From the NCBI GenBank assembly GCA_003194425.1, contig PQXB01000001.1, positions 130,444-162,443 of the forward strand: a DNA stretch of 32,000 nt, written 5' to 3'. The position numbers and the translations under genes are program-made. Source of the DNA: Candidatus Methanophagaceae archaeon (lineage in GTDB: Archaea > Halobacteriota > Syntropharchaeia > Alkanophagales > Methanospirareceae). Of this stretch, positions 1,543-24,664 are shown piece after piece (position 1 is the stretch's first letter; each line of letters starts with the position of its first letter). The notes below the pieces were generated by a model. The model was not told the DNA's origin. It made no database searches and saw only the letters and a list, made by a program, of their open reading frames with translations.

Positions 1543-3186
1543 CTATATAAAAGTTGTTATTTTTTCCTGCGAAATATTTTTCACCACAAACGGTCCCTCC
1601 CGCCTGTAGCCGAACCTTGCGTAGTAGTCTCGCACCCCGATCCCGCTCATCACCGCAACTTTCTTGAACCCCGAGTCCTGCGCCAACTCCTCCGCTCTTC
1701 GCAGCAACCGTGCTCCGTAGCCGCGGTGCTGCCAGCTGCCTGCTTTCCGCTCGCCCAGACCCGTCAGTTCCCCGAAGACGTGCAAGTCCCGAACGAGAGC
1801 GGCGTCCCTCAACTCCGCCCGCCGGTGCGGTTTGGACTTGCACTCGAACTCGCTCTCGGACTTGCACGGAAACCGCTTCTCGCACTCGCGGGGAAACCGC
1901 AGCCGCAGGAGAGCCACCAAAATCTCCTTCTCCTCGTCCTCGTAAGACAGGAAATATTCCGTGCCCCCGCAAGCCTCGTAACTCTCGGACAGAAATTTCA
2001 CGCTCCCTTCGTCCGCGATTTTACCGTCGAGCAGCTGAGAAAGCCCCGCTTCCCTGCACCGCACGCACCTGCACTTGTAGCCCTCCTCGTGCAGCCGTTC
2101 CTGGACCAGCTGCCTCAGGTTGCTCTTCTTCACACCCGCCTCGATGAACTGCGCCGGAATGTCGCGTTGAATTCGTTGAATCCGCACCCACTTCGGAATT
2201 ATTCGCTTTGCGTGCGAAATTATTTCGACCGCCTGCTCCTCGCGAATCGGCTCGTACTCGCCCCGCTTCCACCGTTCGTGCAACTCCGTCCCTCTCACCA
2301 CCAGCGTCGGATAAATTTTTAAGTAGTCGGGCTTGAACTCCGGCTCGCGGAAAATCCGCTCAAACATTTTCTTATCCTCCTCGACCGAGGAGCCTGGCAA
2401 CCCCGGCATCAAGTGAAAGCCCACTTTCAGTCCGCTCTCCCGCGCCGTTCGGTTCGCTGCGACCGAGTCTCCAACCGAGTGCCCCCGCCCAATATTTTCC
2501 AAAATCTCGTCGCTGGTGTGCTGCACACCAAGTTCAACTTTTGTGGCGCCCATTTCAAGCATTCGGTCAATTTCGCCCGCCGTTGCGTAGTCGGGTCGCG
2601 TCTCAAAAGTAATGCCCGTGTTTCTCACTCCGAACGCCTGCAACGCTTCCAAGCACCTGCTCACGAACCACTGCTGGTAGTCCAGCGGTCTCGCAGTCAG
2701 CGTCCCGCCCATCAAAATCAACTCGACCTTCCCGAAGTCGTGTCCAATCTCCGCGAGTTGCCGCAGCCGTGCCTTCACCTGCTCGTAAGGGTCGAAGCGG
2801 TGTTGAGCAGCGCGAACCGCAGCCGGCTCCCTGCCCACGTAACTCTGCGGCGACCCGAACTCTGAGAACGGACCGCCAGGGCAGACCGCACACTTACCGT
2901 GCGGGCAGGGGTAAGGCGAAGTCATCACCGCGACCGGGGCAACACCCGACGCGGTTCGCATTCGCTTCCTCCTCAGCCGCTCTTTTAGCCGCTCTTTTAG
3001 CCGCTCTTTTAGATTCTGGTTTAATCTCAGCACCTCTGAATTCCGAGGGACGCCACGCAGCCCGTATTTCTTGCTGACCTCTTTTTTTAGCTTGTTTAGG
3101 CTTTCGGGGCTGTTTATTCGTCTCTCCGCAACTGCGTCTGCGATCTCACGGCAGGCGTCCTCGTAGGCGGTCGTGTTTGTTGGCAT
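1543..3186 (-). CDS. elp3: Elp3-type radical-SAM / GNAT acetyltransferase (tRNA U34 carboxymethylation)
   Basis: 547 aa. It has a radical-SAM region (PCPHGKCAVCPGG, ELILMGGT) and a C-terminal GNAT region (VRDLHVFG, WQHRGYGARLL). It contains an in-frame (KERL)x3 repeat. Confidence 0.9.
   Translation of the reverse strand: MPTNTTAYEDACREIADAVAERRINSPESLNKLKKEVSKKYGLRGVPRNSEVLRLNQNLKERLKERLKERLRRKRMRTASGVAPVAVMTSPYPCPHGKCAVCPGGPFSEFGSPQSYVGREPAAVRAAQHRFDPYEQVKARLRQLAEIGHDFGKVELILMGGTLTARPLDYQQWFVSRCLEALQAFGVRNTGITFETRPDYATAGEIDRMLEMGATKVELGVQHTSDEILENIGRGHSVGDSVAANRTARESGLKVGFHLMPGLPGSSVEEDKKMFERIFREPEFKPDYLKIYPTLVVRGTELHERWKRGEYEPIREEQAVEIISHAKRIIPKWVRIQRIQRDIPAQFIEAGVKKSNLRQLVQERLHEEGYKCRCVRCREAGLSQLLDGKIADEGSVKFLSESYEACGGTEYFLSYEDEEKEILVALLRLRFPRECEKRFPCKSESEFECKSKPHRRAELRDAALVRDLHVFGELTGLGERKAGSWQHRGYGARLLRRAEELAQDSGFKKVAVMSGIGVRDYYARFGYRREGPFVVKNISQEKITTFI
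2977..3012 (-). repeat. 12-nt tandem repeat x3 inside elp3, encoding (KERL)x3
   Basis: ccgctcttttag occurs three times in perfect tandem on the plus strand. Confidence 0.95.
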
Positions 3187-3342
3187 TAGTAAAATATTTC
3201 ACCTCTTTTTATCTTGCTTTTACGAGCCCGCAGGCGTGGAGTTCTGTGTTCTGCGGCTGAAAAAGTCCAGGGGATGATAAGAGGAGCGTGACAAGGTTTT
3301 GTTAGCCCTTTTCCATTTCACCTTTTTCACCCATTTTTTCAT

Positions 3343-4227
3343 CTACTCTTTTTTCACCACATCTAACGAGAAGCCCAGACTTCGTGCCGAATGCGTAATC
3401 GCGCCGATTGAGACGACGTCAACGCCAGTAGCAGCGAACTCCTTCACATTCTCCTGTTTTATCCTGCCCGACGCCTCCAAAATCAAGCCGCCGCTGCCAC
3501 CGCTGCCGCTGTCCCGAAGACTTCGCTCGGTCAGCAGCCGCACGCACTCTCTCACCTCCGCCACGGGCATATTGTCGAGCATAATTATGTCAACGCCCAA
3601 CTCCGCGGCTTTGAGTGCGTCCTCAACGCTCTCGACCTCGACCTCAATCTTTCGCGTAAAACTCACCCGCTCTTTCGCCCGCCTGACCGCGTTCTCAAGC
3701 CCCATCAATTTTATGCAGTTGTCTTTAATTATCACCGCCTCGTACAGCCCGAACCTGTGCGGGTCGCCGCCGCCGATGGAAATCGCCTTCTTCTCGTATT
3801 TCCTGAACCCCGGCGTCGTCTTCCTCGTCCCCGCCACCCGTACTTCCTCCTGCTTCCCCCCCTTCTCCTGCTTTCCCCGCTCACTCACTTTTCTCACCTC
3901 TTTTACAAACCTGCTCGTCAAGGTCGCTACGCCGCTCATTCTGCCCAGGAAATTAAGCACGAGCCGTTCCGCCTTCAAAACCCTCGCTCCCGCACCTCGC
4001 ACCGTCAAAATAACATCTCCGCTCTTTACCTCGTCCCCGTCCTCAAACTCGGAGGAGCACTGAACCGAGAAGTAGTCAAATATCTGTTTCGCCTCCTCCA
4101 GACCCGCGAGGACGCCCTCCTCTCTCGCCGTTATTTCCGCTCTGCAGTCCGTGTACGGCACGATCTCCTCGTAGTCCTCGTGCCCAACATCCTCTTCCAG
4201 AAAACTTTCTATCTCCTTTAACAGCAT
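3343..4227 (-). CDS. nadC: Nicotinate-nucleotide pyrophosphorylase (quinolinate phosphoribosyltransferase)
   Basis: 294 aa. Motifs: GTRKTTPGFRKYEKKAISIGGGDPHRFGL, IIKDNCI, IMLDNM, EASGRI. Low-complexity inserts: ERGKQEKGGKQEE and SGSGGSGG. Confidence 0.9.
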   Translation of the reverse strand: MLLKEIESFLEEDVGHEDYEEIVPYTDCRAEITAREEGVLAGLEEAKQIFDYFSVQCSSEFEDGDEVKSGDVILTVRGAGARVLKAERLVLNFLGRMSGVATLTSRFVKEVRKVSERGKQEKGGKQEEVRVAGTRKTTPGFRKYEKKAISIGGGDPHRFGLYEAVIIKDNCIKLMGLENAVRRAKERVSFTRKIEVEVESVEDALKAAELGVDIIMLDNMPVAEVRECVRLLTERSLRDSGSGGSGGLILEASGRIKQENVKEFAATGVDVVSIGAITHSARSLGFSLDVVKKE

Positions 4228-4284
4228 TTGCGTTAAACCCTTTCTTAAAAAAGAGCTTTAGCAAAAGAAAGGTGTGAAGGGAGA

Positions 4285-5736: not shown

Positions 5737-5768
5737 GCTGGCAAAATAACCTAGCTTAGAAAATCTGG

Positions 5769-6252: not shown

Positions 6253-7458
6253 TCAGAGTGAGAGTCGCTTCTCAAACCTCGTCAGGTTCTCGCACCCGCC
6301 CTTCAAGACCAGCACCAAATCCTCCAGCCGAACGCCGCCCACTTCGGGGTCGTACAACCCCGGCTCAATTGTAACCACATTCCCACTTCGCAGCAGGTAG
6401 TCGTTCTCGCCAACGCTGGGAGTTTCGTGCAAATCCAACCCCACGCCGTGCCCGGTGGAATGAATAAACCCGGTTTTCGAGCCTTTTCTAACCGTCCCGT
6501 AACCCCTCTCCTCAAAGACCTCGCAGACCCTGTTGTGCACCTCTCGGCAGGTTACACCCTCTTTCACAAGCCCTAAAGCAGCGTCTTGAGCGTGCTTGAC
6601 CGCCTCGTACATTTCTTGCACCTCCTTTGCAGGCTCGCCCTTGACCACGGTTCTTGTCATATCCGCAAAATACCGCTCTGACTTCAGTCTCGGGAAAATG
6701 TCGATGACCACGGGTTCGTTCGCGAGAATCGGACCGCTGCCAGTAAAATGCGGGTCGGCAGCTCTTTTTCCACACGCCACGATCGGCTCTCCGCCGTCGC
6801 AGTTGCACCCGGAATCAATTAAATCGTGCTCAATGCAGGCTTTCACTCTTTCGGAGGTTAGTTTTTCAGAGGTCAGTTTTGAGACGGATTTTATCAGGGC
6901 TACGGCGGTCTGCATTGCGTGCTCGCAGGCTCGCTGTGCCTTCCGAATGCAATTTATTTCGTACTCATTTTTCGTCTCTCGCTCTTTTGTTATTTCTGTC
7001 TCACCGCCTGCTGCCGTTTCGCCCGCCACCACTTCTACTTCCACGCCCCTCTTCCGCAGTTCCTCGGCTGTGTAGAGCGGAAAATACCTCGGCACCTCCA
7101 CCGCGTTCAGTCCCTCCTGTTGAAGAATTCTTAGAAGAAGCTCTTCGGTTTTTAGGTTTGGGTTGTAGCCGTAGTCGAGCGTAGAGCGGACTTCTTTTGC
7201 GGTTGTCTCCTTTCTCGCCCGTTCGTACTCCATTTGCGAGACGACGAGAATGTCTTTTTCTTCGTGGGGAGCGGAGGATGGAGTGGAAGCGGAGGGAAGA
7301 GTGGATGAGGGAGTGGAAGCGGAGGGAAGAGTGGAGGAGGGAGTGGAAGCGGAGGGAAAGCGGAGGTAAATAAAAGGGTCTGCGGCGAGGAAGTGAGAGG
7401 CGTAAAACATATCAGCGTTGTGCGTGCTCTCGCTGACCATTAAAAGAGGTTTTTTCAT
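6253..7458 (-). CDS. M24B family Xaa-Pro peptidase
   Basis: 401 aa. Pita-bread fold metal-ligand context: VVIDIFP, DMTRT, HSTGHGVGLDLHE, VVTIEPG, RLEDLV. It carries an N-proximal STPSSTLPSA repeat insert. Confidence 0.85.
   Translation of the reverse strand: MKKPLLMVSESTHNADMFYASHFLAADPFIYLRFPSASTPSSTLPSASTPSSTLPSASTPSSAPHEEKDILVVSQMEYERARKETTAKEVRSTLDYGYNPNLKTEELLLRILQQEGLNAVEVPRYFPLYTAEELRKRGVEVEVVAGETAAGGETEITKERETKNEYEINCIRKAQRACEHAMQTAVALIKSVSKLTSEKLTSERVKACIEHDLIDSGCNCDGGEPIVACGKRAADPHFTGSGPILANEPVVIDIFPRLKSERYFADMTRTVVKGEPAKEVQEMYEAVKHAQDAALGLVKEGVTCREVHNRVCEVFEERGYGTVRKGSKTGFIHSTGHGVGLDLHETPSVGENDYLLRSGNVVTIEPGLYDPEVGGVRLEDLVLVLKGGCENLTRFEKRLSL
7269..7358 (-). repeat. 30-nt tandem repeat (about 3 copies) inside the M24 peptidase gene
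   Basis: gagtggaagcggagggaagagtggaKgagg occurs at 7281-7310 and 7311-7340, with partial copies on both sides. It encodes PSASTPSSTL repeats. Confidence 0.9.
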
Positions 7459-7517: not shown

Positions 7518-8855
7518 ATGAAAATTGGAGTGGTAATTCACGGACCCGAGGTAGTGGACGAAGGCGAGGCGGAGGAGGCGGTAAAACGGCTGAAGGCTGC
7601 GAACGCGGGGTTTAAAGTAGAAGCGGCTTTGGGCGGAATAACAGGTAAAACCGCGGTTGTTGACGCAGGCTTACGGCGTCTAATTGACATCAGTAAGGAC
7701 TTGAGACCCTCTGAAGTAGTGCGGGATTTTGTCGCTCGGGGAATAGATTTTGTCGTCTTGGTAAATCGTGCGAAGACCAGCGAGAGCGGGTTTCGGCTCG
7801 GCGAGGGGATTCTGCGGAATTTCTTCGCGACTGGCGGTACTGGCGGTACTGGCGGTACTGGCGGTACTAAAGGCGGTGCAACGGCAACGGCGAAGATTTC
7901 GTTTCTGCAGTTGGAATTCTGTGGCAGGAGGATTCTTCGTTGGGTCGTGAAGCCCGGGGACGAGGAGGTGTGTAAAAGGCTGACAAGAGTTTTTAGCGAG
8001 TTTAGGGTTGAAGAGGTTGCGGAGAGCAAACACGAACTCGGGTCGAGGTCGAGGTGCCGAAGAGACGCTCGTTCGGGTTTAGTGTACCGCGAGATAAGAG
8101 GAGTGAGTCCCGGTGAGAAAATCGTTGTGGACGGCGTAGTTGTCGGAGTGGCGTCGCAGGCTAACGCGGTTACGTTGGTTGCGAGGGAGGGGCGACTCGT
8201 AGAAATTCTGGGCGGCACGTTGATAAAGCACAACCTTGAAAAGCTGCCGAGTTTGGATCTGGAGCGGGAGATGGTTAAGACTGCGAGTGTAATTCGGAGG
8301 ACGAGACCGAGAAGGAGGGGGAAAAAAGAAAAGTCAAAAGGAGGAAAGAGAAAGAAGAAGGCGTGCTTCTTCTACACGGTTGAGGGCATTTTCCCGAGGC
8401 TCGTGGGAAGGGGTGCTGGAGCAGGAGCCGAAGCAGGAGCCGAAGCAGGAGCCGAAGCAGGAGCCGAAGAGGCGGAGGTTGCGGTTGCGGTGACCGTGGG
8501 GGACGACACGACGAGCATTGCCGGCGACATCTTGAAGCGGTTCGGAGTTCGGCTGATTGGGATTACAGACGGCGACGCAGACGGGCTGATTGACGGAATT
8601 AAGACAGGAGCGTTGGAGGAGTACGAGAAGTTTCTGCCGCCTGGCTCGGTGGTAGTGAGGTTGAAACCCGAGACGGACGACCTTGTAGGGCAGCGGGTGA
8701 AGGCAGAGATTTTTAATGGAGGAGAAGAGATTGAGTTGGAAGGAGTAGGGGAAGAAGAAGTTGCGAGGTGGTTTGAGGAGTTGAAGCGTCGGGTGCTTGA
8801 GTTGGCAGGCGAGGAGGTTGTTGGGGTGCTGAGTTCTTCGACTTATGAAGGTTGA
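7518..8855 (+). CDS. Conserved archaeal hypothetical protein (possibly DUF2117-like); function unknown
   Basis: 445-aa ORF with coding-like composition. The N-terminus MKIGVVIHGPEVVDEG and the central IRGVSPGEKIVVDGVVVG, HNLEKL and GITDGDADGLI resemble uncharacterised methanogen proteins from memory only. It contains (TGG)x4, (AGAE)x4 and a polybasic stretch. Confidence 0.55.
   Translation: MKIGVVIHGPEVVDEGEAEEAVKRLKAANAGFKVEAALGGITGKTAVVDAGLRRLIDISKDLRPSEVVRDFVARGIDFVVLVNRAKTSESGFRLGEGILRNFFATGGTGGTGGTGGTKGGATATAKISFLQLEFCGRRILRWVVKPGDEEVCKRLTRVFSEFRVEEVAESKHELGSRSRCRRDARSGLVYREIRGVSPGEKIVVDGVVVGVASQANAVTLVAREGRLVEILGGTLIKHNLEKLPSLDLEREMVKTASVIRRTRPRRRGKKEKSKGGKRKKKACFFYTVEGIFPRLVGRGAGAGAEAGAEAGAEAGAEEAEVAVAVTVGDDTTSIAGDILKRFGVRLIGITDGDADGLIDGIKTGALEEYEKFLPPGSVVVRLKPETDDLVGQRVKAEIFNGGEEIELEGVGEEEVARWFEELKRRVLELAGEEVVGVLSSSTYEG
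7830..7868 (+). repeat. 9-nt tandem repeat x4 (actggcggt), encoding (TGG)x4
   Basis: Perfect tandem copies, in frame with the 7518 ORF. Confidence 0.95.
8421..8468 (+). repeat. 12-nt tandem repeat x4 (gcaggagccgaa), encoding (AGAE)x4
   Basis: Perfect tandem copies, in frame with the 7518 ORF. Confidence 0.95.
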
Positions 8856-8922: not shown

Positions 8923-9495
8923 ATGAAAGAAGAAGAGAAGGAAGTGCTAAAGGTATTGGAAGAGAATGCGAGGCTGAGCTACGGGGAAATTGCGAGGCTG
9001 GTCGGAGTGGCGGGCGGGGAAGCAGGCGGGGAAGCTGGAGGGGAAGCTGGTGGGGAAGCTGGTGGGGAAGTAGGCGGGGAAGCTGGTGGAGAAGCGGCGG
9101 TGAAAAAGATTATTTCAGAGTTGGAGAAGAAGAAAATTATAAAAAAATATACAGTGGTGGCGGACTGGGAAAAGGCGGGAGTAGAGAGCGTGCAGGCGTT
9201 AATTGACATAAAAGTCAGTCCTGAAAGGGAGACTGGGTACGACCCGGTTGCAGAGCGGATTTCGCGGTTTCCAGAAGTGCGGTCGGTGCGGCTGGTCTCG
9301 GGCGAGTACGACCTCTCGGTGCTGGTGGAGGGGAAGACGATGAGAGAGGTTGCGTATTTCGTTGCCGAGAAGATTGCACCGCTGGAGCAGGTTCGGAACA
9401 CGCTGACGCACTTTTTACTGAAGACTTACAAGGAGGACGGAGAGATTTACGGCGAGGAGGAGGGGGAGGGGAAGAGGCTGGCGGTGACGCTGTAA
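8923..9495 (+). CDS. Lrp/AsnC family transcriptional regulator with (GGEA)x7 insert in the HTH
   Basis: 190 aa. N-terminal HTH (LSYGEIARLVGV ... AVKKIISELEKKKIIKKY) and a C-terminal RAM/AsnC_trans_reg-like domain (IDIKV, VRSVRLVSGEYDLSVLVEG). Confidence 0.85.
   Translation: MKEEEKEVLKVLEENARLSYGEIARLVGVAGGEAGGEAGGEAGGEAGGEVGGEAGGEAAVKKIISELEKKKIIKKYTVVADWEKAGVESVQALIDIKVSPERETGYDPVAERISRFPEVRSVRLVSGEYDLSVLVEGKTMREVAYFVAEKIAPLEQVRNTLTHFLLKTYKEDGEIYGEEEGEGKRLAVTL
9013..9096 (+). repeat. 12-nt tandem repeat x7, encoding (GGEA/V)x7
   Basis: ggcggggaagcw-type units, with six GGGG runs spaced every 12 nt on the coding strand. Confidence 0.95.
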
Positions 9496-9560: not shown

Positions 9561-10784
9561 ATGTCAAATAAAATAGCCGAGCGGGTGAAAGGGCTAAAAG
9601 GCTCGGGCATAAGAGAGTTTTTCGATGTCGCAGAGCAGATGGAGGGGGCGATTTCGTTGGGCGTCGGCGAGCCTGACTTTGTAACACCCTGGAGCATTCG
9701 GGAAGCGTGCATATTTTCGCTTGAAAAGGGCTACACTTCTTACACGAGCAACTGGGGGCTGCTCGAATTGAGAGAGGCGATTTCCGAAAGGACTTACAGA
9801 GAAAGTGGCGTGTTCTACGACCCAGAGGGCGAGATTCTCGTGACGACCGGAGTGAGCGAGGCGTTCGATTTGGCGCTGCGTGCGGTTGTCAACCCAGGCG
9901 ACGAGGTCGTGCTTCACGAACCCTCGTACGTCTCCTACAAGCCCTGCACGGTCTTTGCTGGCGGTACGCCGGTCTGCGTGGAGACGCGGGTAGAGGACGA
10001 GTTCAAACTGCGGGCGGAGCAGCTGGCGGAGCGGGTGACCGAGAAGACGAAGGCGGTTGTCCTGAACTACCCAAACAACCCCACAGGAGCGGCGTTGAGC
10101 AGGAAGGAGTTGGAGGAGATTGCGGAGGTTGCGGAGGAGCGGGATTTGGTGGTTATTTCGGACGAGATTTACGGCAGTCTGACTTACGGCGACAACGGAG
10201 ACAGCGGGGAGCGGGGGAGGGGGCACACCTGCTTCTCGTCGCTCAACGGAATGCGGGAGCGGACGGTTCTGCTGAACGGTTTTTCGAAGGCTTACGCGAT
10301 GACAGGGTGGCGGATTGGGTACGCTGCGGGAAACCGGGAGCTCTTGGAGGCGATGATGAAAATTCACCAGTACGTGATGCTTTGTGCTCCGATTACGGCA
10401 CAGAAGGCGGCGCTGGAGGCGCTGAGCCCGAGGTGCGACTGCGAGACCGAGAAAATGGTCGAGGAGTACAACAGGCGACGGCGGTTAATGCTGGCAGGGC
10501 TGCGGGAGGTTGGGCTGGAGTGTTTTGAGCCGAAGGGTGCGTTCTACACTTTCCCCTCGGTTGAGAGCACGGGCCTCTCGTCCGAGGAGTTTGCAAAGCG
10601 GCTGCTCTTGGAGGAGAAGGTGGTCGTGATTCCGGGAAGCGTCTTCGGGGCTTGCGGCGAGGGGTTCGTGAGGTGCTCTTACGCGGTCTCGCAGTACGAA
10701 ATAAAAGAGGCGTTGGAGCGGATTGGGCGGTTTTTGGAGGGGTTGGAAGGGGGTGGAAGGGGTTTGAGAGGGGAAGGGGTTTGA
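9561..10784 (+). CDS. Class-I PLP-dependent aminotransferase (aspartate/aromatic aminotransferase-like)
   Basis: 407 aa. Motifs: GVGEPDF, NYPNNPTGA, NGFSKAYAMTGWRIGY (PLP lysine context), VRCSYA. Confidence 0.9.
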   Translation: MSNKIAERVKGLKGSGIREFFDVAEQMEGAISLGVGEPDFVTPWSIREACIFSLEKGYTSYTSNWGLLELREAISERTYRESGVFYDPEGEILVTTGVSEAFDLALRAVVNPGDEVVLHEPSYVSYKPCTVFAGGTPVCVETRVEDEFKLRAEQLAERVTEKTKAVVLNYPNNPTGAALSRKELEEIAEVAEERDLVVISDEIYGSLTYGDNGDSGERGRGHTCFSSLNGMRERTVLLNGFSKAYAMTGWRIGYAAGNRELLEAMMKIHQYVMLCAPITAQKAALEALSPRCDCETEKMVEEYNRRRRLMLAGLREVGLECFEPKGAFYTFPSVESTGLSSEEFAKRLLLEEKVVVIPGSVFGACGEGFVRCSYAVSQYEIKEALERIGRFLEGLEGGGRGLRGEGV

Positions 10785-10789
10785 GAGGG
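10749..10789 (+). other. Canonical G-quadruplex-forming motif (five G3-5 runs, loops 2-7 nt)
   Basis: GGGGGtggaaGGGGtttgagaGGGGaaGGGGtttgagaGGG spans the last codons and stop codon of the aminotransferase gene. The motif is certain; folding is not. Confidence 0.4.
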
Positions 10790-10812
10790 AGTGAAATTGA
10801 GAGGGAGTGAAA
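10781..10812 (+). repeat. Perfect 16-nt tandem duplication (ttgagagggagtgaaa x2) covering the aminotransferase stop and the argD Shine-Dalgarno
   Basis: Copies lie at 10781-10796 and 10797-10812. Each contains GAGGGAGTGA. Confidence 0.95.
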
Positions 10813-12056: not shown

Positions 12057-12097
12057 TTTTAATATGTCTAATTAAAATATAATTTAGAGGTTGTAAA

Positions 12098-12808: not shown

Positions 12809-12918
12809 GATCCGAGAGTAGGTAGTCGCAGTTCAGTATCGAGAGGTTGCAGGGGGTTGAGGTCAAAACAAAAGAAGCACGTTCCGATTTTCAAACGAGC
12901 GTCAGGGCAGAAACGCTT

Positions 12919-14746: not shown

Positions 14747-14886
14747 TTTTTCTTTTTTTCACCTCCTAACTTTTTTTCTTTTTTTCCTTCGCTTCCCTCT
14801 TTTTCCTCCTCCTCTTTTTCTACTCTCTTTTCTTCCTCTGCCCTCTCCCTTTTTGGCTCGTTCTTACCGAGGGCAATTAGTATATT

Positions 14887-17494: not shown

Positions 17495-18679
17495 TCACTT
17501 GCATTTCTTATAAATTCTTTTAAATATATTTACATTTTTCACTGCCGCAGCAAACGCTTTTGCTCGGGTCTCGCCGACGCCAATTCCTGTGGCTACGGGC
17601 TCTCCGGGTTTTATGATTCTGCCTTTTTCAGGAATATCCGCTACTCCTACCCTTCTACCCCAACTCCCACCGAAGTCCTCTGCCACCACCATTTCCCGCT
17701 CTGCAAAGAGAATCGCTTTTGCGGCGCACCTTTGCCTTTTTGCCTTCACTCTTTCCGGTAGCTCCTTCCCCTCTCCCCCTCCTGCAACAACCGCTTTAAG
17801 ATGCTCGTCCACCAAATTCAAGCCCGTAGAAAGCTCCACCGTGTCGAGGCTGCCTTGAAATCGCGGGTTCACTTCGATCACGACGGGTCGCCGCCCGTCC
17901 GCGGTAACAACAAAATCCACGCCGTTAGAACCCACCAAACCCAACTCAACCACCAACTCCTCCGCAATCTCGCTCATTCGCTGCACCTCCTCCGAAAATC
18001 TCGTCTCAAACGGCGAAATATTCCCGCAGTAGACGAACGGACCGGGAGCGCCGAGACTCTTCAACCCGATTAACTGCTCGTTCACGCAGACCGAGACCGC
18101 CTCGTTCTTTTTAGAAATCGTGGAGACCGAGGCAGGCGTTCCTTTTAAATATTCCTGAAACAGAAATTCGGGCAACCGCTCTGCCCACCGAACCAACTCC
18201 TTCCCGGTCCTGCAGAGGAAATTCGCAGTCCCTCCGCCGCCGTAAGCCGGCTTCGCAACCACCGGGTACTTTAGGTCTGCTCCTTCTCCTTCGGCTATTT
18301 CTTTCCCGGTGTAAGTGCGGGGGTGAGGGACGCCCAAGTCGTCCAATCGGGCGGAGAGCCACGCCTTGTTCGCCACCGCTCTCGTCTTCTCCAGCGAGTT
18401 ACCCACTATTTTTCGCCCCAAGAAATCAGAACCCGCCCTCTCAAACCCTGACCCCAGAATTACGCCGTCTGCTTTGCTTACCTCTCCTCTGAGGAGTTTG
18501 AGACTGCTGAGGAGTTTGAGACTGGCTTGAGGCTGAAGCGGGTCCAAGTGAAAATATTTTTTCGCGCACCTCCTCGTGTCCAAGTCGCCAAAAGCGTCGG
18601 CAGCAGACATTTCGTAGCCCGCTCTGCTGCCTGAACAGACAATGTGCCGAACCGAGTAGCCCACCGCCAACAATTTCAT
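17495..18679 (-). CDS. ATP-grasp superfamily enzyme (COG2232-like carboligase)
   Basis: 394 aa. YPVVAKPAYGGGGT, FQEYLKG, GSNGVDFVV and VIEVNPRFQGSL are typical ATP-grasp elements. It has an (A/S)SLKLL x2 repeat. Confidence 0.7.
   Translation of the reverse strand: MKLLAVGYSVRHIVCSGSRAGYEMSAADAFGDLDTRRCAKKYFHLDPLQPQASLKLLSSLKLLRGEVSKADGVILGSGFERAGSDFLGRKIVGNSLEKTRAVANKAWLSARLDDLGVPHPRTYTGKEIAEGEGADLKYPVVAKPAYGGGGTANFLCRTGKELVRWAERLPEFLFQEYLKGTPASVSTISKKNEAVSVCVNEQLIGLKSLGAPGPFVYCGNISPFETRFSEEVQRMSEIAEELVVELGLVGSNGVDFVVTADGRRPVVIEVNPRFQGSLDTVELSTGLNLVDEHLKAVVAGGGEGKELPERVKAKRQRCAAKAILFAEREMVVAEDFGGSWGRRVGVADIPEKGRIIKPGEPVATGIGVGETRAKAFAAAVKNVNIFKRIYKKCK
18491..18526 (-). repeat. 18-nt tandem repeat x2 inside the ATP-grasp gene
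   Basis: gaggagtttgagactgSY occurs twice, encoding ASLKLL-SSLKLL. Confidence 0.9.
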
Positions 18680-18887: not shown

Positions 18888-20171
18888 ATGAAAATGAAGG
18901 AAAAGGAGAAGAAGGAAAGAGGGGAGAAGCGAAACAACGGCAGCAGCGGCAGGGCGAGAAGAAGGGAAGCAGTGATTTTTACAGGACTTACTTGCGTGTT
19001 TGTGTGTGGTTTTGTCTTCGCGGCAGTAGGGACGCCGCCCCCCACCGCCGCGGGCGCAGAGGGCGCAGAGGGAGGCGGCGGCGCAGGGGGAGGGAAGACC
19101 TGGTACGTGGACGACGACGGCAGCACGAACGCGTGGGACAACGGCACAACCGACGGCGGGAACTACTGGAGTGACCACGCCTGCACGGGCAACCCGTCAG
19201 ACGGAAGCGAGCCGTACGAAATCGACGCGGACAGCACAGACCGCTACCCGTTTGAAGATGTGAGCTGGTGGGCAGCACCACCACCGCTACCAACACTACC
19301 ACCGCCATCAAAGCCCGCGGTCACAATCGCGACCGACAAGACAGAATATTCGCCGTCTGGCAAAGGGAAAACAATTGGTTATTTCACGGTGAGCGGTGAC
19401 GAAATCTGCCTAGAAGAAAGGAAGCCAATTGTTTATTTCTTCGGTTCCGAAGGGTGCGGGTACTGCAAGTGGGAGCATCCAGTGTTCCTAAGTGTTACCT
19501 CAAGGTTTGGGGATTTCATTTCGCTGCACGACAATATGGGAAATTTCAGCGCGGACAAGGAGATTTTTGAGAAATATAATCCCGGTGGTAGCGTGCCGAC
19601 ACTGGTTCTGGGCTGCAAATATTACCGACCCGGCGCTGGCACAAGCATCGGCGAGGAGCAGGAAGCGAAGGTCTTGACAGCTTTGATTTGCGATTTAACT
19701 GACAGTAAGCCAGTAGAAGTCTGCTCTGACCCTGAGGTTGAGGATTTGATGAAGAAAAACACGATGAACCTCACAGACGAGATGAAAATCACAATCGGCT
19801 TGAAGAACCCAACGAGCAGCCCGGTAAACGCTTACTTCGTCTGGAATCTCAGTCTGCCGGACTACGGCTACGAGTGGACGATGATGGTAGTGCCACTGGC
19901 GCCGCTGCCTGCGGAGTTCGAGCAGTGCTACAACTTCTCGCTGCTTATTCCTGACTGGGGTGCGGTTGGGTTTAACGCGAGTTGGACGGTAGCGCTGCTG
20001 GAGGAAACGGCGCCGTACGAGACGATTTGCGAGGACTCTGCGGACTGGAGGTACGTGCCTGCAGGGTCAGGGAGAGGGGTAGTAGAAGAAGAAGGAGGAG
20101 TAAAGCCTGCTGAGGTAGGAGAGGAATTGAAGAGAAGGGTAGAGGAAGAGGGAGTGGAGTTGCCGTTTTAG
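18888..20171 (+). CDS. Membrane-anchored/secreted chimeric protein: beta-helix head/tail remnant, Pro-rich linker, thioredoxin-fold CxxC domain and a C-terminal domain
   Basis: 427 aa. It has a basic N-terminus and a TM/signal anchor (AVIFTGLTCVFVCGFVFAAVG). KTWYVDDDG is followed directly by GGNYWSDH...EPYEIDADSTDRYPFED (NosD/CASH-type ends). The linker is APPPLPTLPPPSKP. The thioredoxin fold shows GCGYCKWEHP with a cis-Pro context (SVPTLVLG). Confidence 0.7.
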   Translation: MKMKEKEKKERGEKRNNGSSGRARRREAVIFTGLTCVFVCGFVFAAVGTPPPTAAGAEGAEGGGGAGGGKTWYVDDDGSTNAWDNGTTDGGNYWSDHACTGNPSDGSEPYEIDADSTDRYPFEDVSWWAAPPPLPTLPPPSKPAVTIATDKTEYSPSGKGKTIGYFTVSGDEICLEERKPIVYFFGSEGCGYCKWEHPVFLSVTSRFGDFISLHDNMGNFSADKEIFEKYNPGGSVPTLVLGCKYYRPGAGTSIGEEQEAKVLTALICDLTDSKPVEVCSDPEVEDLMKKNTMNLTDEMKITIGLKNPTSSPVNAYFVWNLSLPDYGYEWTMMVVPLAPLPAEFEQCYNFSLLIPDWGAVGFNASWTVALLEETAPYETICEDSADWRYVPAGSGRGVVEEEGGVKPAEVGEELKRRVEEEGVELPF

Positions 20172-20205
20172 GTTAGGCGGCTCTCCTCTTTTTTTATTTT
20201 TTAGT
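20112..20205 (+). repeat. Direct repeat copy 1 (94 bp): last 20 codons, stop and terminator of the 18888-20171 gene
   Basis: 92/94 identical to 20727-20820, offset 615 bp. Confidence 0.95.
20157..20202 (+). terminator. Hairpin (gagttgcc/ggcggctc, 2 G-U pairs) followed by T7-A-T6
   Basis: The stem is 20157-20164 / 20176-20183, with T runs at 20189-20202. It overlaps the stop codon of the upstream gene. Confidence 0.45.
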
Positions 20206-20209
20206 TAAA

Positions 20210-20464
20210 ATGAAAAAATATAAGGTCCGAGTAATAATTGACCCCTGTGAAGAGGGGGGATATTTTGCTACGTGCCCAGCCTTGCAGGGCTGCCACGCAG
20301 AAGGAGAGACCTACTTAGAGGCTTTGGAGAACATTCAGGATGTTATCAAAATTCATCTTGAAAGCCGAGCGGAATTGGGAATGTTGCCACCCGATCAAGC
20401 AGAAGTTGTTAGCGTGCTGGACACATTCAAAGTGGAATTAATGGTACCAGTGGCGGAAGCGTGA
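20210..20464 (+). CDS. hicB: HicB-like antitoxin (short UPF0150 form, no DNA-binding domain)
   Basis: 84 aa. YKVRVIIDPCEEGGYFATCPALQGCHAEGETYLEALENIQDVIKIHLE is a textbook HicB N-domain. Confidence 0.8.
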   Translation: MKKYKVRVIIDPCEEGGYFATCPALQGCHAEGETYLEALENIQDVIKIHLESRAELGMLPPDQAEVVSVLDTFKVELMVPVAEA

Positions 20465-20694
20465 GTAAAAAGCTGCCCTCTGTAACCGACAGGGAAGTTA
20501 TCAAGGTTGCCAAAAAGCTTGGTTTCACATTTTACAGGCAGGCAAAGGGCAGTCACGAAGTTTGGCGTAGGGCGAGTGACGGGCGGCATACTGTGATACC
20601 AAGACACGCAGGTAAAATTATCAAACGGAAGACGCTGAAAAGTATCATAAATGATTTTGGAATAACCGTTGAGGTCTTTAACGGGCTGAGATAA
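20461..20694 (+). CDS. hicA: HicA-family mRNA interferase toxin
   Basis: 77 aa. The GTG start overlaps the hicB stop by 4 nt (GTGA). Motifs: VIKVAKKLGFTFYRQAKGSHEVW, VIPRHAGKIIKRKTLKSIINDFGI. Confidence 0.85.
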   Translation: MSKKLPSVTDREVIKVAKKLGFTFYRQAKGSHEVWRRASDGRHTVIPRHAGKIIKRKTLKSIINDFGITVEVFNGLR

Positions 20695-20726
20695 ATATAT
20701 CCAACAAAGAGATTGCATCCCTCTCC

Positions 20727-20820
20727 GAGGTAGGAGAGGAGTTGCAGAGAAGGGTAGAGGAAGAGGGAGTGGAGTTGCCGTTTTAGGTTAGGCGGCTCTC
20801 CTCTTTTTTTATTTTTTAGT
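20727..20820 (+). repeat. Direct repeat copy 2 (94 bp), an orphan copy of the gene 3' end and terminator
   Basis: It has two mismatches to copy 1 (K to Q in the relic reading frame). No upstream ORF is attached: an in-frame stop lies shortly upstream and there is no ATG. Confidence 0.95.
20772..20817 (+). terminator. Duplicated copy of the hairpin plus T-run terminator
   Basis: Same sequence as 20157-20202. It would terminate hicBA transcripts. Confidence 0.35.
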
Positions 20821-20858
20821 CAAGGTTTTTAGCACAGGTAAAAAAGTTGTTGTCTATA

Positions 20859-21152
20859 ATGAATCTTCGGTTTTACAGAGACCCAGCGACAAATCTTCCA
20901 CACATCTACAAACACGGGGTAACAGAGCGGGAAGTAGAAGAAATTTTAGCACAGCCCGGCGAAGACCGTCTTGGAAATGAGGGCTCGCGAGTTGCTGTTG
21001 GTCAGACTCGAGAAGGCAGGTTTCTTCGTGTCGTTTATGTGCCTGACAAAGAGCCTAATAGTTTATTTGTGATAACGGCGTATAATTTAATGGGAAAAGC
21101 ATTGTTAGCGTACCGAAAGCGAAAGCGAAGGAGGAGAAGGAGAAGAAAATGA
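20859..21152 (+). CDS. BrnT/DUF497-like putative toxin
   Basis: The ATG is at 20859; the ORF track starts at the TTG at 20847. IYKHGVTEREVEEIL, GQTREGRFLRVVYV and LFVITAYNL resemble BrnT-type toxins. It has a poly-Arg tail and overlaps the downstream gene by 4 nt. Confidence 0.55.
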   Translation: MNLRFYRDPATNLPHIYKHGVTEREVEEILAQPGEDRLGNEGSRVAVGQTREGRFLRVVYVPDKEPNSLFVITAYNLMGKALLAYRKRKRRRRRRRK

Positions 21153-21382
21153 AGCAGCAGGATAAGTTTCCACCTGGCTGGAAAGAAGAGCGAGTGCGGC
21201 GTGTTTTAACGCACTACGAGAACCAAACAGACGAGGAAGCGGTAGCTGAAGACGAAGCCGCTTTTGAGCTTGAACCTGAAATTGAACCAGAACCCGAAGG
21301 GCAGAGAGGCCAGACGATTATGGAGATCCCGCAAGAACTGGTTCCTAAGGTTCGTGCTCTAATTGCTGAATGTCAGTGCTGA
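21149..21382 (+). CDS. Putative cognate antitoxin (small acidic protein)
   Basis: 77 aa with an ATGA overlap with the upstream toxin-like gene. WKEERVRRVLTHYENQTDEEAVAEDEAAFE ... IMEIPQELVPKVRALI is a pattern I recall next to DUF497-type toxins. The family name is uncertain. Confidence 0.5.
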   Translation: MKQQDKFPPGWKEERVRRVLTHYENQTDEEAVAEDEAAFELEPEIEPEPEGQRGQTIMEIPQELVPKVRALIAECQC

Positions 21383-21475
21383 ATCGTCCCTTTTCAATCC
21401 CGACGACCCTTTCTTCACTACAACTAAAATGCTCATAGGAATATATCTGAAGAAGTAGGAGAGAGGGATGGAGTT

Positions 21476-21520
21476 ACCACACACCCACTCACCACACCAC
21501 TCACCACACACCCACTCACC
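21476..21520. repeat. Imperfect CA-rich tandem repeat (ccacacacccactca-like units x3)
   Basis: It lies immediately 3' of the trpC stop, between convergent genes. Confidence 0.8.
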
Positions 21521-22316
21521 TCGCACCCACAAACTCCCGCACCTTCTCCTCAATCTTCTCAGTCCCAGAATTCATAACCGCCGTGCCCACGAGCAGAGCG
21601 TCCGCACCCGCCGCAAACATTCTCGACGCCTCCTCCTCGCCTTCAATTCCGCTCATCGCGACCAAAACGACCTCGGCAGGGAGTTCGGCTAATCTTGGCT
21701 TCACCTCTGCCGCAACCCGCTCAAAAGTCTCCAAATCCACCTCAAGCCTCTTTAAGTCACGGTTGTTCACGCCCACCAAAACCGACTCCGAAATCCCCTC
21801 CAAATCCGCCTCAAAAATCTTCCTCCACGACTCCCCGTCCACCTCGACCAACGCCTCCAGCCCGAACGAGGCGGCTTTCCTCGCCAACTCCCGCAGCCTC
21901 TTGGCACTCAAAAATCTCGCAATTAGCAGCACCGCGTCCGCACCGCTCGCGTACGACTCGTGCACCTGAAACTCGTCAAAAATAAAATCCTTCCTCAAGA
22001 CCGGCAGCTCAACCTCCGAGAGTTTAACAGCCCTCAAATCCTCCAAACTCCCTAAAAACGCCTCGTCTGTCAAGACCGAAATCGCACACGCCCCGCCGTT
22101 CTGCATTCTCCTCGCTGCTTCTACAGACCCAATTTCTGTTTGTAATTTTGTCCCTTCTTCTTTCAACCCCCTCCGCTTCACTTCCGCGATTACAGCCCTT
22201 TTTCCCGCTCCTTCCCCCGCTCTCTTCGTCTCTAAAATCGCCTCCTTCAGACTCCTCCGCTCCTTTAACCGCTCAACCGTCTCCCGCTTCCTCTTTAAAA
22301 CTTCTTTTACATTCAT
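21516..22316 (-). CDS. trpC: Indole-3-glycerol-phosphate synthase
   Basis: The start was chosen at MNVKEVLKRKRETVERLK (cat at 22314-22316). Motifs: VIAEVKR, ISVLTDEAFLGSLEDL, LPVLRKDFI, ALVEVD, VGVNNRDL. It overlaps the GT4 3' end by 44 nt. Confidence 0.85.
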   Translation of the reverse strand: MNVKEVLKRKRETVERLKERRSLKEAILETKRAGEGAGKRAVIAEVKRRGLKEEGTKLQTEIGSVEAARRMQNGGACAISVLTDEAFLGSLEDLRAVKLSEVELPVLRKDFIFDEFQVHESYASGADAVLLIARFLSAKRLRELARKAASFGLEALVEVDGESWRKIFEADLEGISESVLVGVNNRDLKRLEVDLETFERVAAEVKPRLAELPAEVVLVAMSGIEGEEEASRMFAAGADALLVGTAVMNSGTEKIEEKVREFVGAR

Positions 22317-23463
22317 CGTAAATTTCAAAATATTTCTCCGCTGTTTTCTCCCACGAGTACTGCTTCGCCCTTTCCCTGCCACGCCTGCTCAGCTCTGCAC
22401 GAAGTTCAGGCTCACGAAGCAGTCTAGACATTCCTGCGGCTATTTCGTCAGTGCTGTAAGGGTCGACGAGAACCGCAGCGTCGCCCGCTACTTCTGCCGT
22501 GCCCGTGAATTTTGAGGTTACCACAGGCGTTCCTACCTGCATCGCCTCGATCACAGGCAGCCCAAAGCCCTCACAGGGCGAAGGATAAACAAGAAACTTG
22601 GCACGCCGTAAAAGCGTGTCCAACTCCTCGTCAGAAATAAAACCCGTAAAAATCACCCGCTCTTCCATTCCCGTTTTCCTTACGGCAGCGTCACAACGCT
22701 TCTTCATTTTTCTCAAATACGGGTTGTTGGAGTAGTTGCCGGTGATGAGCAGCTTGCCCGCGTACCCTTCCTGACGCACCAGCCTTGAGAAAGCTGAAAT
22801 TAAACGCCCAATGTTCTTCCGCTCGTGAATCCCGCCAACATTAAGAAGAAAGCCGTCGGTCGAGCCGCTGCTCAACTGAAACCGCTCTTCAAGGCTCTTT
22901 TCGGTCGCAGCGCTCGGCGTTGTGGGTCTCCGCAAGCCGTTGGGGACGACCCTGACCTTCTCTGCAGGAACGCCAACCTTCTCCACGATTTCGTGCTTCG
23001 AGAACTCGGAGACCGTTGTTACGACATCGTTCAGGCGGCACGCGAGCCGAGTGCCGGACTTGTAGAGGAGGTGGTTTCGGAAAAAACCCATCGCCTCGCG
23101 GAAAGTGAAAGGAATTACATCGTGAATCGTGAGAACGCACGGGGCTTTCTTGCGGAACGGAAAACTCCAGTTGTACGGAAAATGAACGACCTCCGCACCC
23201 TCTTGCTCGGCAATCTTCTGAATCGTGACAGAATCCAACCAAGCGTTCTTCAGCGACATTGCGTGCGAACGGACGGGCAGAGGACGAGTTGCAACATTTG
23301 GGTCGCTCTCAAAAATCCGCTTCGCCTCTGCGAGCCGGTTTGACTTGCAGAGCAGGACAACTCGGTGCCCCTTCGCGGCGGCATATTTCGTTATTTGGAT
23401 GACTCCCTGCTCCACGCCGCCGACCACGCCGTCAAACTTCCGAAAATCCATCACTATTTTCAT
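22273..23463 (-). CDS. GT4-family glycosyltransferase
   Basis: The start was chosen at MKIVMDF (cat at 23461-23463), 4 nt after the GH130 stop. GGVEQ, the C-terminal EGFGLPVIEAM motif and a SWEKTAEKY tail are present. The 76-aa upstream extension of the ORF overlaps GH130 and is R/S-rich. Confidence 0.85.
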   Translation of the reverse strand: MKIVMDFRKFDGVVGGVEQGVIQITKYAAAKGHRVVLLCKSNRLAEAKRIFESDPNVATRPLPVRSHAMSLKNAWLDSVTIQKIAEQEGAEVVHFPYNWSFPFRKKAPCVLTIHDVIPFTFREAMGFFRNHLLYKSGTRLACRLNDVVTTVSEFSKHEIVEKVGVPAEKVRVVPNGLRRPTTPSAATEKSLEERFQLSSGSTDGFLLNVGGIHERKNIGRLISAFSRLVRQEGYAGKLLITGNYSNNPYLRKMKKRCDAAVRKTGMEERVIFTGFISDEELDTLLRRAKFLVYPSPCEGFGLPVIEAMQVGTPVVTSKFTGTAEVAGDAAVLVDPYSTDEIAAGMSRLLREPELRAELSRRGRERAKQYSWEKTAEKYFEIYDECKRSFKEEAGDG

Positions 23464-23467
23464 CGTT

Positions 23468-24664
23468 TCAAAAACTACCGAGCAGGCTCTCGACGTCCGT
23501 GACCGCCACGCAGACCGACTCGTCCGACGCACCGTAGTACAGAAAAACCTTCCCGTCTCCGTCTTGCTTTCTCTCCTGCTCTCGCTCTCTCTCCCTCTCC
23601 TGTTCCCTCTCTTTCTCCCTCTCCTGTTCCCTCTCTCTCTCCCTCTCCTGCTCTCGCTCCACAACGCCGTTCGAGAAGACGACATTTCCAAAGAAGCCCT
23701 CGGTCTCGTAAGGCTCGGTCGGGGTCAGCAGCGGCACGGAGGCTCGCCTCACTACGCGGAACGGCTCCTCAAGGTCAAGCAGCAGGCAGAAAAGCGAGTA
23801 AGCGTCGTCCGCCCCTTTACCGTGGCAAATTACCAGCCAACCCTCGGAAGTCTTAATCGGCGGTGCTCCCGCCCCTACCCGCTCCGACTCCCAGTTCTCC
23901 TCCTTCCTCTTACTCTCGCGGTCGCGGGTGCGGAGGACGCACTTGTGGTTGCCCCAGTGCAGAAGGTCGGGCGACTCGGCGTACCAAATCGCAGGCTTCC
24001 CGAAGCCCGAATTGTTGGGGCGGTGGAGAGCCACATATTTCCCACCTACTTTCTCTGGAAAGATTGCGACATCCTTGTTCTCGGGGCAGAAAATCAGCCC
24101 CTTCCTCTCGAGGTTCTTGAAATCCTCGGTAACCGCCAACGCAGTCGCCCACGAGTCTTCGGAGACTGCGGTGTAGTTGATGTAGTATTTTCCGTCGATG
24201 AAAGTCACTCGGGCATCCTCTACGCCGTACCTCTCCGCCTCGCACGCGGGGTAAATGAACGGCTCGTCCTCTACGGTAAAATTGACCCCGTCCCTGCTCC
24301 TGGCTACTCGGATGTGGCTCAAGGTCGAGAGGAACTCCCGCCCTTTGTAGGCGACGGCACGAGTGTCTTTCAGCGTCACCGCGGGGTCCGACGCCTTGAA
24401 CTCCAAAATATCCGGGACTGCAGTGCCGTCACCAGTGCCGTCACCAGTGCCGTCTCCGTCGTCCTCAAACCGACAGACTGGCGTGCGGACGTAGCCTTCT
24501 CTGGGTTCGCAGCCCTCCGCGACTCGCACCAGCAGAATAATTTCGTCGCCGAAGTTCACAGCACCCGGATTAAAAGCACCGAGCACCTTGTAGCCGTCTC
24601 TTGTAGGCTTTACATCGCGGGGCTTAATTATCGGGTTGTTTTTATGCCTCACAATCATTTTCAT
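23468..24664 (-). CDS. GH130-family glycoside phosphorylase/hydrolase (beta-mannoside type)
   Basis: 398 aa. NPIIKP, GAFNPGAV, VEDARV, YYINYTAVS, NKDVAIFPEK and YYGASD are typical of GH130. It carries two repeat inserts. Confidence 0.85.
   Translation of the reverse strand: MKMIVRHKNNPIIKPRDVKPTRDGYKVLGAFNPGAVNFGDEIILLVRVAEGCEPREGYVRTPVCRFEDDGDGTGDGTGDGTAVPDILEFKASDPAVTLKDTRAVAYKGREFLSTLSHIRVARSRDGVNFTVEDEPFIYPACEAERYGVEDARVTFIDGKYYINYTAVSEDSWATALAVTEDFKNLERKGLIFCPENKDVAIFPEKVGGKYVALHRPNNSGFGKPAIWYAESPDLLHWGNHKCVLRTRDRESKRKEENWESERVGAGAPPIKTSEGWLVICHGKGADDAYSLFCLLLDLEEPFRVVRRASVPLLTPTEPYETEGFFGNVVFSNGVVEREQEREREREQEREKEREQEREREREQERKQDGDGKVFLYYGASDESVCVAVTDVESLLGSF
23571..23660 (-). repeat. 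About 24-nt tandem repeat x3-4, encoding an E/R/Q/K stretch (EREQEREREREQEREKEREQ...)
   Basis: ctccctctcctgttccctctcttt-type units are visible on the plus strand, in frame in GH130. Confidence 0.9.
24421..24456 (-). repeat. 12-nt tandem repeat x3 (cagtgccgtcac), encoding (DGTG)x3
   Basis: Directly visible, in frame in GH130. Confidence 0.95.

Follow-up and report, generated by a model that had tools for sequence, protein, structure and literature searches.

In-frame tandem repeats that vary in copy number between strains in conserved genes of an ANME-1 archaeon

Our analysis of a 32 kb stretch (53% GC; hereafter the window) of a metagenome-assembled genome of the anaerobic methanotrophic archaea of group 1 (ANME-1; Candidatus Methanophagales) revealed arrays of short tandem repeats within the reading frames of conserved housekeeping genes, far beyond chance expectation and with unit numbers that differ between close relatives. 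We consider it likely that in this one ANME-1 species short tandem duplications of 8–36 nt arise, expand and contract at an unusually high rate throughout the genome and are then filtered by selection. The genome is probably that of the G37 ANME-1a draft, which comprises 1.40 Mb in 5 scaffolds with 52% GC (Krukenberg et al. 2018; PMC5947290), and proteins of the window are identical to NCBI PXF50984–PXF50992. The context of the window is chromosomal, as it includes the mtr operon, cdh, Elp3 and ArgD and contigs 363 kb and 1.19 Mb long preserve its synteny.

Arrays were called with Tandem Repeats Finder (TRF; score of at least 50, overlapping rows merged), which yielded 25 arrays in the window; they occupy 4.2% of its bases, and their density is 7.8 per 10 kb. 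This is about 14 times the density in 65 unrelated prokaryotic loci (1.13 Mb), for which the mean was 0.54 and the maximum 2.9 arrays per 10 kb. The 38 annotated genes cover 29.7 kb and leave 2.3 kb of non-coding sequence. Fourteen arrays lie wholly in coding sequence (CDS), compared with 0.27 ± 0.52 (maximum 3) in 200 within-gene codon shuffles, and about 11 are intergenic or located at gene ends. The periods of all 14 arrays in CDS are divisible by 3, and no frame is broken by any of them. A strong array is present in 10 of the 38 genes (26%), and the number rises to 15 (39%) once the weaker low-complexity inserts in NadC, the class-I aminotransferase (AT-I), DUF1638, IDI-2 and MtrG are added. 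An initial annotation of this DNA had already described such repeats in about one third of the genes, which is a fair estimate, and TRF recovered each of its repeats at the same position along with four further in-gene arrays (Elp3 1834–1900, M24 peptidase 6849–6880, a hypothetical gene 14713–14740 and IGPS 21772–21827). The annotation also regarded the density as highly unusual for a prokaryote; this is borne out by our controls and by a survey of 117,861 genomes, in which the density of short tandem repeats was lowest in archaea and not enriched over simulated genomes (PMC12699852). Its claim that the periods are without exception multiples of 3 is valid within genes but not in intergenic regions and at gene ends, where periods of 13, 16, 17 and 23 nt occur.

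Comparison of closely related genomes identified the arrays as true variable-number tandem repeats (VNTRs), with units arranged head to tail and polymorphic by whole units. Syntenic loci of the same species were aligned from ENA ERZ27248118, ENA ERZ27227318 and NCBI GCA_026133975.1, and the strain set consists of four independent assemblies with 97.5–99.5% nucleotide identity (labels include L083, L086 and L087). Nearly every array differs in whole units across these assemblies. Even compared with L087, the closest strain, seven of 12 arrays differ, while the two sequences are separated by only 68 single-nucleotide polymorphisms in 13.1 kb (0.52% divergence); array change is therefore about 100 times as frequent as change at a nucleotide site. 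Among the indel alleles of at least 3 nt, 24 of 28 represent tandem copies of adjacent sequence, and single-copy progenitor alleles bounded by 1–4 nt of microhomology were found for the Elp3, ATP-grasp, hyp234 and 17-nt units. The 12-nt array of Elp3, for instance, has alleles of 1, 2 and 3 units, with L086 carrying the single-copy progenitor in the strain alignment, and a single-copy allele of the ATP-grasp gene (388 aa) likewise exists in the population. Other allelic series comprise 3.3, 4.3, 7.3 and 7.4 copies of the 9-nt unit and about 2, 4 and 5 copies of the 12-nt unit in the DUF2117 gene, about 3, 5 and 6 units in ArgD, and 2.3 and 3.3 copies of the 30-nt unit in the M24 peptidase, which is 401 aa long here compared with 391 aa in other strains. 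GH130 lengths of 398, 386 and 378 aa occur among the strains, the unit of the hypothetical gene at 14713–14740 is single-copy in two other strains, and an amino acid-binding protein is represented by alleles of 192, 196 and 200 aa with 98–99% identity, one aligned strain having one extra unit. The longest series was observed for the Lrp/AsnC regulator, with 2, 4, 5, 6 or 7 GGEA units (4 to 7 in the aligned assemblies, the others from protein clusters) and protein lengths of 170, 182, 186 and 190 aa. Discrete protein alleles recur across NCBI, ENA, JGI and Logan clusters, and the copy-number polymorphism that the initial annotation had proposed to look for is thus present among independent assemblies.

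The codon phasing of the arrays reflects a selection filter rather than a phased mechanism. When indels between strains were divided into those in the interior of CDS and those outside, the latter class comprising intergenic DNA and the terminal 45 nt ahead of a stop codon, all 20 interior indels were multiples of 3, compared with three of the eight outside (Fisher p = 0.0006), whose lengths are 4, 8, 8, 12, 14, 15, 17 and 21 nt. Array periods show the same contrast, being multiples of 3 in 14 of 14 arrays in CDS and in 6 of 11 outside (p = 0.009). Just beyond the window, the same species carries an intergenic 11-nt array with 0, 4.1 or 8.1 copies and, at the end of a GHMP-kinase gene, another whose 8-nt unit is present 5 or 7 times. 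Furthermore, the 2.3 kb of non-coding DNA contain 7–11 arrays, that is 30–48 per 10 kb versus 4.7 per 10 kb in CDS (6–10 times). The only frame-changing repeat found in a gene is a 17-nt tandem duplication at 10755–10784, present solely in the window strain, which rewrites just the last 3–6 residues of AT-I, whose C-terminus reads ...RGEGV* instead of ...RGSEIERE*. Because frame-breaking unit lengths are duplicated wherever the frame does not matter, the duplication process is not codon-aware, and the pattern fits the suggestion of the initial annotation that slippage is filtered by selection for frame preservation.

Homologues in the PDB align on both sides of the arrays and are gapped opposite them, and these alignments, together with low-confidence coils in AlphaFold2 models of the Lrp and DUF2117 proteins, the two proteins that were modelled, place the inserts in loops or at termini. 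The (GGEA)7 array of Lrp adds 26 residues at the junction of residues 41 and 42 of 7fby, which is the turn of the helix-turn-helix (HTH) motif that separates helix 2 from the recognition helix; the model predicts a helix at 20–27, coil at 28–53 (predicted local distance difference test score, pLDDT, below 50 at 32–52) and a helix at 54–69. Both DUF2117 inserts are likewise predicted as coil with pLDDT below 50, the TGG site corresponding to residues 108–122, and the folds of both proteins are retained in the models despite the inserts. In Elp3, the array at 1834–1900 accounts for an 18-aa insertion relative to Methanocaldococcus Elp3 (PDB 6ia8), compared with which the LKER/KERL segment has a length excess of only 3 aa. 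In other ANME-1 lineages, 14 DUF2117 orthologues (56–63% identity) lack both the TGG and the EAGA repeats and have short variable loops instead, and Lrp orthologues contain no GGEA unit; the inserts are thus, as the initial annotation had assumed, lineage-specific additions to conserved genes. Selection acts on the encoded peptides, since differences between units within an array comprise 19 synonymous and 7 nonsynonymous changes, although only 27% would be expected to be synonymous (p = 1e-6). The ratio of nonsynonymous to synonymous polymorphism (pN/pS) of repeat-bearing genes is 0.16–0.21 and not above that of repeat-free genes. With these values and with frames intact in all strains, pseudogenisation of the repeat-bearing genes is ruled out. 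Overall, the inserts are probably disordered segments of variable length within conserved, functional housekeeping proteins, 9 of the 10 repeat-bearing genes encoding cytoplasmic enzymes or regulators judging from their Pfam families.

The repeat richness is specific to this lineage. The four strains of the species have 7.5–8.1 arrays per 10 kb, and the flanks beyond both ends of the window 4.4–7.7, compared with 0–1.4 in five other ANME-1 lineages, which include ANME-1-THS and the nearest available relatives (77–80% identical in the class-I aminotransferase). The public protein collection contained no intermediate relatives, as identity in DUF2117 falls from 97% to 63%. The GC content of 53% differs from the 43–51% of the repeat-poor ANME-1 lineages, which hints at a changed mutational regime. 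The root cause could be a mutator-like difference in the replisome or in repair, or weak selection in a small genome. Units prone to form G-quadruplexes were set aside as a general cause, as only about 6 of the 14 units contain a GGG or CCC run by visual inspection. Structured RNAs or tRNAs were considered for the intergenic arrays, and the window gave no Rfam or tRNA match.

A plausible course of events would begin with the duplication of a native stretch bounded by 1–4 nt of microhomology, after which replication slippage, or an equivalent out-of-register realignment, would add or remove whole units. Selection would then allow only unit lengths divisible by 3 to persist in genes, with the survivors mainly in loops and termini and encoding small or hydrophilic residues (E, S, G, T, K, R, A). 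Tandem copies, microhomology and stepwise alleles all point to slippage, and the mutational input would be elevated. Several points weigh against this reading. Slippage is deduced from the pattern, the molecular process itself not having been observed, and about 50 kb of this genome were sampled, reaching about 10 kb beyond each end of the window, so that a genome-wide process is an extrapolation. Although in small numbers, the share of non-coding periods divisible by 3 (6 of 11) is above the expected one third. Moreover, the intergenic DNA is of homopurine or homopyrimidine low complexity, and this composition, rather than weaker selection, may explain part of the higher array density there. 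Purine loading or strand composition might by itself have been a sufficient cause but was ruled out, as the sense-strand purine content (0.55–0.59) and the GC skew are equal in repeat-poor ANME-1. Finally, copy-number differences between short-read assemblies could in part be collapse artefacts, which is unlikely since the arrays of 30–98 nt are shorter than the reads and alleles recur across sources.

This last objection can be extended to the arrays as a whole, as repeats are a known source of assembly errors (PMC6868369) and one Logan contig ends beside the M24 array. However, the same arrays are present in NCBI, ENA, JGI and Logan assemblies from different samples, they keep the frame of conserved genes, and the steps between their alleles are exact units, so that an artefact of assembly or sequencing is excluded for practical purposes. 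A dedicated mechanism generating codon-phased duplications had been the second suggestion of the initial annotation. An enzymatic system of this kind, integrase-like or template-switching, would account for the multiples of 3 among all arrays and indels in CDS, and a CRISPR-like alternative has been raised for the repeats of Borg elements (PMC9879509). Yet units of 4, 8, 11, 13, 14, 16, 17 and 23 nt are duplicated likewise outside the frame constraint, each unit copies the native sequence of its own surroundings and occurs at one locus only, and no shared motif, spacer or associated gene was found in the window, which makes such a system very improbable.

Positive selection could keep or drive the arrays if mutation were ordinary and retention adaptive, the variable disordered inserts being useful as tunable linkers, for example in the Lrp HTH, or as interaction motifs, a role suggested for the amino-acid tandem repeats of Borgs. 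Variation between units is mostly synonymous, indicating a constrained peptide, the arrays persist across strains in host genes under purifying selection, and the inserts are predicted as flexible loops; the same argument has been made for the analogous Borg repeats (PMC9879509). We nevertheless regard adaptive retention as unlikely: an excess of synonymous changes is equally expected from the purging of harmful residues, the Lrp copy number drifts freely from 2 to 7 units in near-identical strains without a favoured length, and all other ANME-1 lineages have working orthologues that lack the inserts. In addition, the greater density of arrays in non-coding DNA and the frame-breaking periods at gene ends argue for a mutational origin. 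Conversely, the mutation rate might not be raised at all, and a small effective population size together with relaxed selection in a reduced genome might let slightly deleterious in-frame duplications accumulate. The probable identity with the 1.4-Mb G37 draft, which is unusually small and of atypical GC content (PMC5947290), would agree with this, as would inserts in awkward sites such as the HTH turn and the long branch of the lineage, whose next relatives are 63–80% identical in protein. However, pN/pS values of 0.16–0.34 do not indicate gross relaxation, the roughly 100-fold faster change of perfect young arrays relative to site mutation is a property of rate and not of retention, and the density of intergenic arrays, on which selection is weak whatever the lineage, also far exceeds that in other ANME-1 loci. 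Relaxed selection on its own thus appears quite improbable, and a high rate of tandem duplication followed by a selection filter is the explanation we favour.

Contingency loci in bacteria consist of units of 1–8 nt and turn genes for surface, virulence or restriction functions on or off through a shift of the reading frame or of the promoter spacing. The window arrays resemble these loci and other bacterial VNTRs in their slippage-type copy-number change and in being hypervariable between strains, but they do not fit the definition of phase-variable contingency loci, as the genic arrays lie in housekeeping genes and keep the frame, and the only frame-changer alters the last residues of AT-I. 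In Plasmodium falciparum, a eukaryote with an extremely AT-rich genome, housekeeping proteins carry inserts rich in N and K that are thought to derive from slippage in a compositionally skewed genome. As in Plasmodium, the inserts described here are lineage-specific, compositionally biased and length-polymorphic and lie in loops of conserved enzymes; unlike in Plasmodium, the genome has 53% GC, and the inserts are rich in E, G, S and A and mostly clear minisatellites of 9–30 nt. The analogy to Plasmodium that the initial annotation had drawn is hence reasonable but not the closest one, since the tandem repeats of Borgs are nearer (PMC9879509).

Borg tandem repeats and the amino-acid tandem repeats encoded by them were described by Schoelmerich et al. 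2023 (PLoS Biol; PMC9879509). Both systems show pervasive short tandem repeats in the setting of an archaeal methane oxidiser. In Borgs, all genic units are divisible by 3 but only 14–38% of intergenic ones (PMC9879509), corresponding to 14 of 14 and 6 of 11 units here, so that units outside genes are not all divisible by 3 in either system and mostly not in Borgs. Further likenesses are copy numbers that vary within populations, units unique to their locus (only trivial 8-mers are shared among our 14 units), partial repeats or microhomology flanking the arrays, a T-poor composition, encoded repeats that are mostly predicted to be disordered (modelled here for Lrp and DUF2117) and a genome-specific trait that is missing from close relatives or hosts. 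There are also clear differences. The window belongs to a cellular chromosome of an ANME-1 archaeon and its repeats reside in core syntenic housekeeping genes (Elp3, ArgD, NadC and the neighbourhood of the Mtr operon), whereas Borgs are giant extrachromosomal elements with Methanoperedens as host; the proteins affected are mostly cytoplasmic enzymes and regulators here but extracellular or membrane proteins in Borgs. Borg units are dominated by A (48%), while the window units contain 33% G, 27% A, 25% C and 16% T on the sense strand, the 30-nt M24 unit being an exception in that it is pyrimidine-rich on that strand. Only about half of the genic arrays in the window are perfect at the nucleotide level. 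Perfect repeat regions as defined for Borgs (at least 3 units and at least 50 nt without mismatch) occur there at about 0.5 per 10 kb (PMC9879509); by this strict definition, the 32 kb contain one region (8420–8469) and L086 one, a density of the same order, with most arrays being shorter or 79–95% matched. The repeats are therefore not of the Borg system but behave like it, and Borg tandem repeats are their closest known parallel. Replication slippage in vitro by archaeal PolB and PolD, both Pyrococcus enzymes, is attributed to Castillo-Lizardo et al. 2014, as cited in PMC9879509; it suggests a plausible enzymatic route by which units could be gained and lost in Euryarchaeota, although it concerns Pyrococcus biochemistry and not the polymerases of this lineage. 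In the literature we found no paper describing tandem repeats in ANME-1 chromosomes, and a 2026 study of ANME-1 'hotspots' counts structural variants above 50 bp only (PMC13385816).

The positions of the arrays and inserts are compiled in Table 1. Pfam searches identified Elp3, NadC, a CdhD-family protein, the M24 peptidase, DUF2117, Lrp/AsnC, class-I and class-III aminotransferases, DUF1638, ATP-grasp, IGPS, a GT4 glycosyltransferase, GH130, a MiaB-like enzyme and IDI-2, and the translated open reading frames (ORFs) revealed an mtrCBAFGH cluster following these genes. Pfam agrees with the gene identities given in the initial annotation except for an 'ACT' protein (15961–16551), which had no Pfam match at E ≤ 0.001 and is named amino acid-binding protein at NCBI. 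At the low-complexity insert of AT-I (10188–10223), the L003 orthologue reads GGK.

Table 1. Tandem arrays and low-complexity inserts of the window (n, number of units)
Feature	Position	Strand	Description
Elp3 array	2975–3012	-	TRF 12 nt x3.2, (LKER)3, N-terminal domain
Elp3 second array	1834–1900	-	imperfect 24 nt x2.8
NadC insert	3484–3519	-	12-aa G/S-rich LRDSGSGGSGGL vs PDB 5hul; weak TRF row 3487–3507
NadC second insert	~3853–3894	-	13-aa K/Q/E/G vs PDB 5hul
M24 peptidase array	7269–7366	-	30 nt x3.3, (SSTLPSASTP)n, N-terminal domain
M24 peptidase second array	6849–6880	-	15 nt x2.1, KLTSE x2; 4-aa excess vs PDB 1wy2
DUF2117 9-nt array	7830–7868	+	perfect x4.3, (TGG)4
DUF2117 12-nt array	8420–8469	+	perfect x4.2, (EAGA)4
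Lrp/AsnC array	9013–9104	+	12 nt x7.8, (GGEA)7
Class-I aminotransferase (AT-I) insert	10188–10223	+	low-complexity GDNGDSGERGRG; weak TRF row 10186–10207
AT-I end / spacer / ArgD start	10734–10812	+	overlapping 10-, 17- and 16-nt repeats
ArgD array	10827–10879	+	9 nt x5.9, (QEE)6, N-terminal extension ahead of aminotransferase fold
Hypothetical secreted/membrane protein array	14713–14740	-	12 nt x2.3, (KTET)2, N-terminus
Amino acid-binding ('ACT') protein array	16047–16118	+	12 nt x4.8–6, GSAE/GSAK (TRF x4.8, 16047–16103)
ATP-grasp array	18489–18524	-	perfect 18 nt x2.0, SSLKLL x2
IGPS (TrpC) array	21772–21827	-	weak 24 nt x2.3, 78% matches; least convincing in-gene array
GH130 E/R array	23571–23660	-	24 nt x3.7, (REREQERE)n, after last residue alignable to PDB 5b0p
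GH130 second array	24421–24454	-	perfect 12 nt x2.8, (DGTG)3; 5-aa excess vs PDB 5b0p
IDI-2 insert	27594–27644	+	A/P/V-rich, ~9 aa vs PDB 2zru
mtrG-mtrH spacer array	29841–29935	.	23-nt (also 18-nt) repeat x3, homopurine on mtr sense strand
Further intergenic/gene-end array	720–749		
Further intergenic/gene-end array	1230–1266		
Further intergenic/gene-end array	12793–12822		13 nt
Further intergenic/gene-end array	14796–14839		
Further intergenic/gene-end array	21476–21530		
Further intergenic/gene-end array	26768–26804		16 nt
Further intergenic/gene-end array	28833–28868		16 nt
Further intergenic/gene-end array	30259–30301		
Further intergenic/gene-end array	31568–31640		

Several additional observations concern genes of the window and its surroundings. 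An RFC/Rad17-like AAA+ gene of the clamp-loader type adjoining the window (L099–L101, 12407–12504) carries a variable 15-nt array with 3.4 versus 5.3 copies and encodes 359 versus 369 aa. Clamp loading bears on replication fidelity. The mtr spacers (mtrG-H 29842–29940, mtrF-G 30229–30309 and mtrC-B 31564–31678) consist of long homopurine tracts on the sense strand with many imperfect repeats, and MtrG itself, whose N-terminus is extended by an E/K-rich segment, measures 95 or 100 aa depending on the strain. The orthologue of the M24 gene (L086 6658–7848; L082 3006–3986) has been called as 326 aa with the start placed after the 30-nt repeat, together with an ORF of 69 aa that runs over the repeat on the other strand, whereas other assemblies call the full frame of 391–401 aa; the 326-aa calls are probably an annotation artefact induced by the repeat. 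Due to the strong strand composition skew, long spurious ORFs extend over real genes at 22273–23691 (an alternative frame over GH130) and 1295–1972. One of the spurious ORFs is a TTG-start extension of GT4 that reads the E/R repeat of GH130 in another frame; the true GT4 has 396 aa in related assemblies.

Gene content also differs within the species. An AIM24-family gene (12098–12808, in the region 12039–12900) is shared by the window strain and L087, while about 800 bp including the gene are absent from L083 and L086, so that this region represents a presence/absence polymorphism. A second variable region (18888–21400) lies between the ATP-grasp gene and IGPS and contains a gene for a hypothetical secreted protein of 427 aa, a HicB/HicA pair (20210–20694) and a DUF4258-like pair (20847–21382); L086 is without the HicAB pair and most of the 427-aa gene. 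Variable hotspots containing hicAB were reported in the 2026 ANME-1 study (PMC13385816).

Archaeal and bacterial chromosomes are normally repeat-poor, and attention to pervasive in-frame tandem repeats has centred mainly on Borgs, whose hosts are without them. Our findings indicate that repeat richness can belong to a cellular lineage and not to mobile elements alone, and that it can be hypervariable and affect core enzymes and regulators. For ANME-1 population studies, the arrays are usable as VNTR strain markers. They also call for caution in annotation and assembly, as gene prediction splits or truncates the genes that bear them and contigs are interrupted at these sites.

The repeat-rich lineage and repeat-poor ANME-1 with similar strand composition provide a natural comparison for a difference in replication or repair. 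Moreover, the cost or benefit of a variable loop of 26 residues in an HTH turn is directly testable. The species represents a cellular, possibly culturable, counterpart to the repeats of Borgs. As a tentative and rather doubtful extension, a heritable, lineage-specific 'tandem-duplication mutator', that is an altered part of the replisome or of repair, might be the very process behind Borg repeats, with in-frame arrays tuning the length of core proteins as in the HTH spacer of Lrp with its 2–7 units. If true, this would be the first tractable cellular system for a Borg-like repeat machinery, in an organism that is probably growing in a laboratory enrichment (G37).

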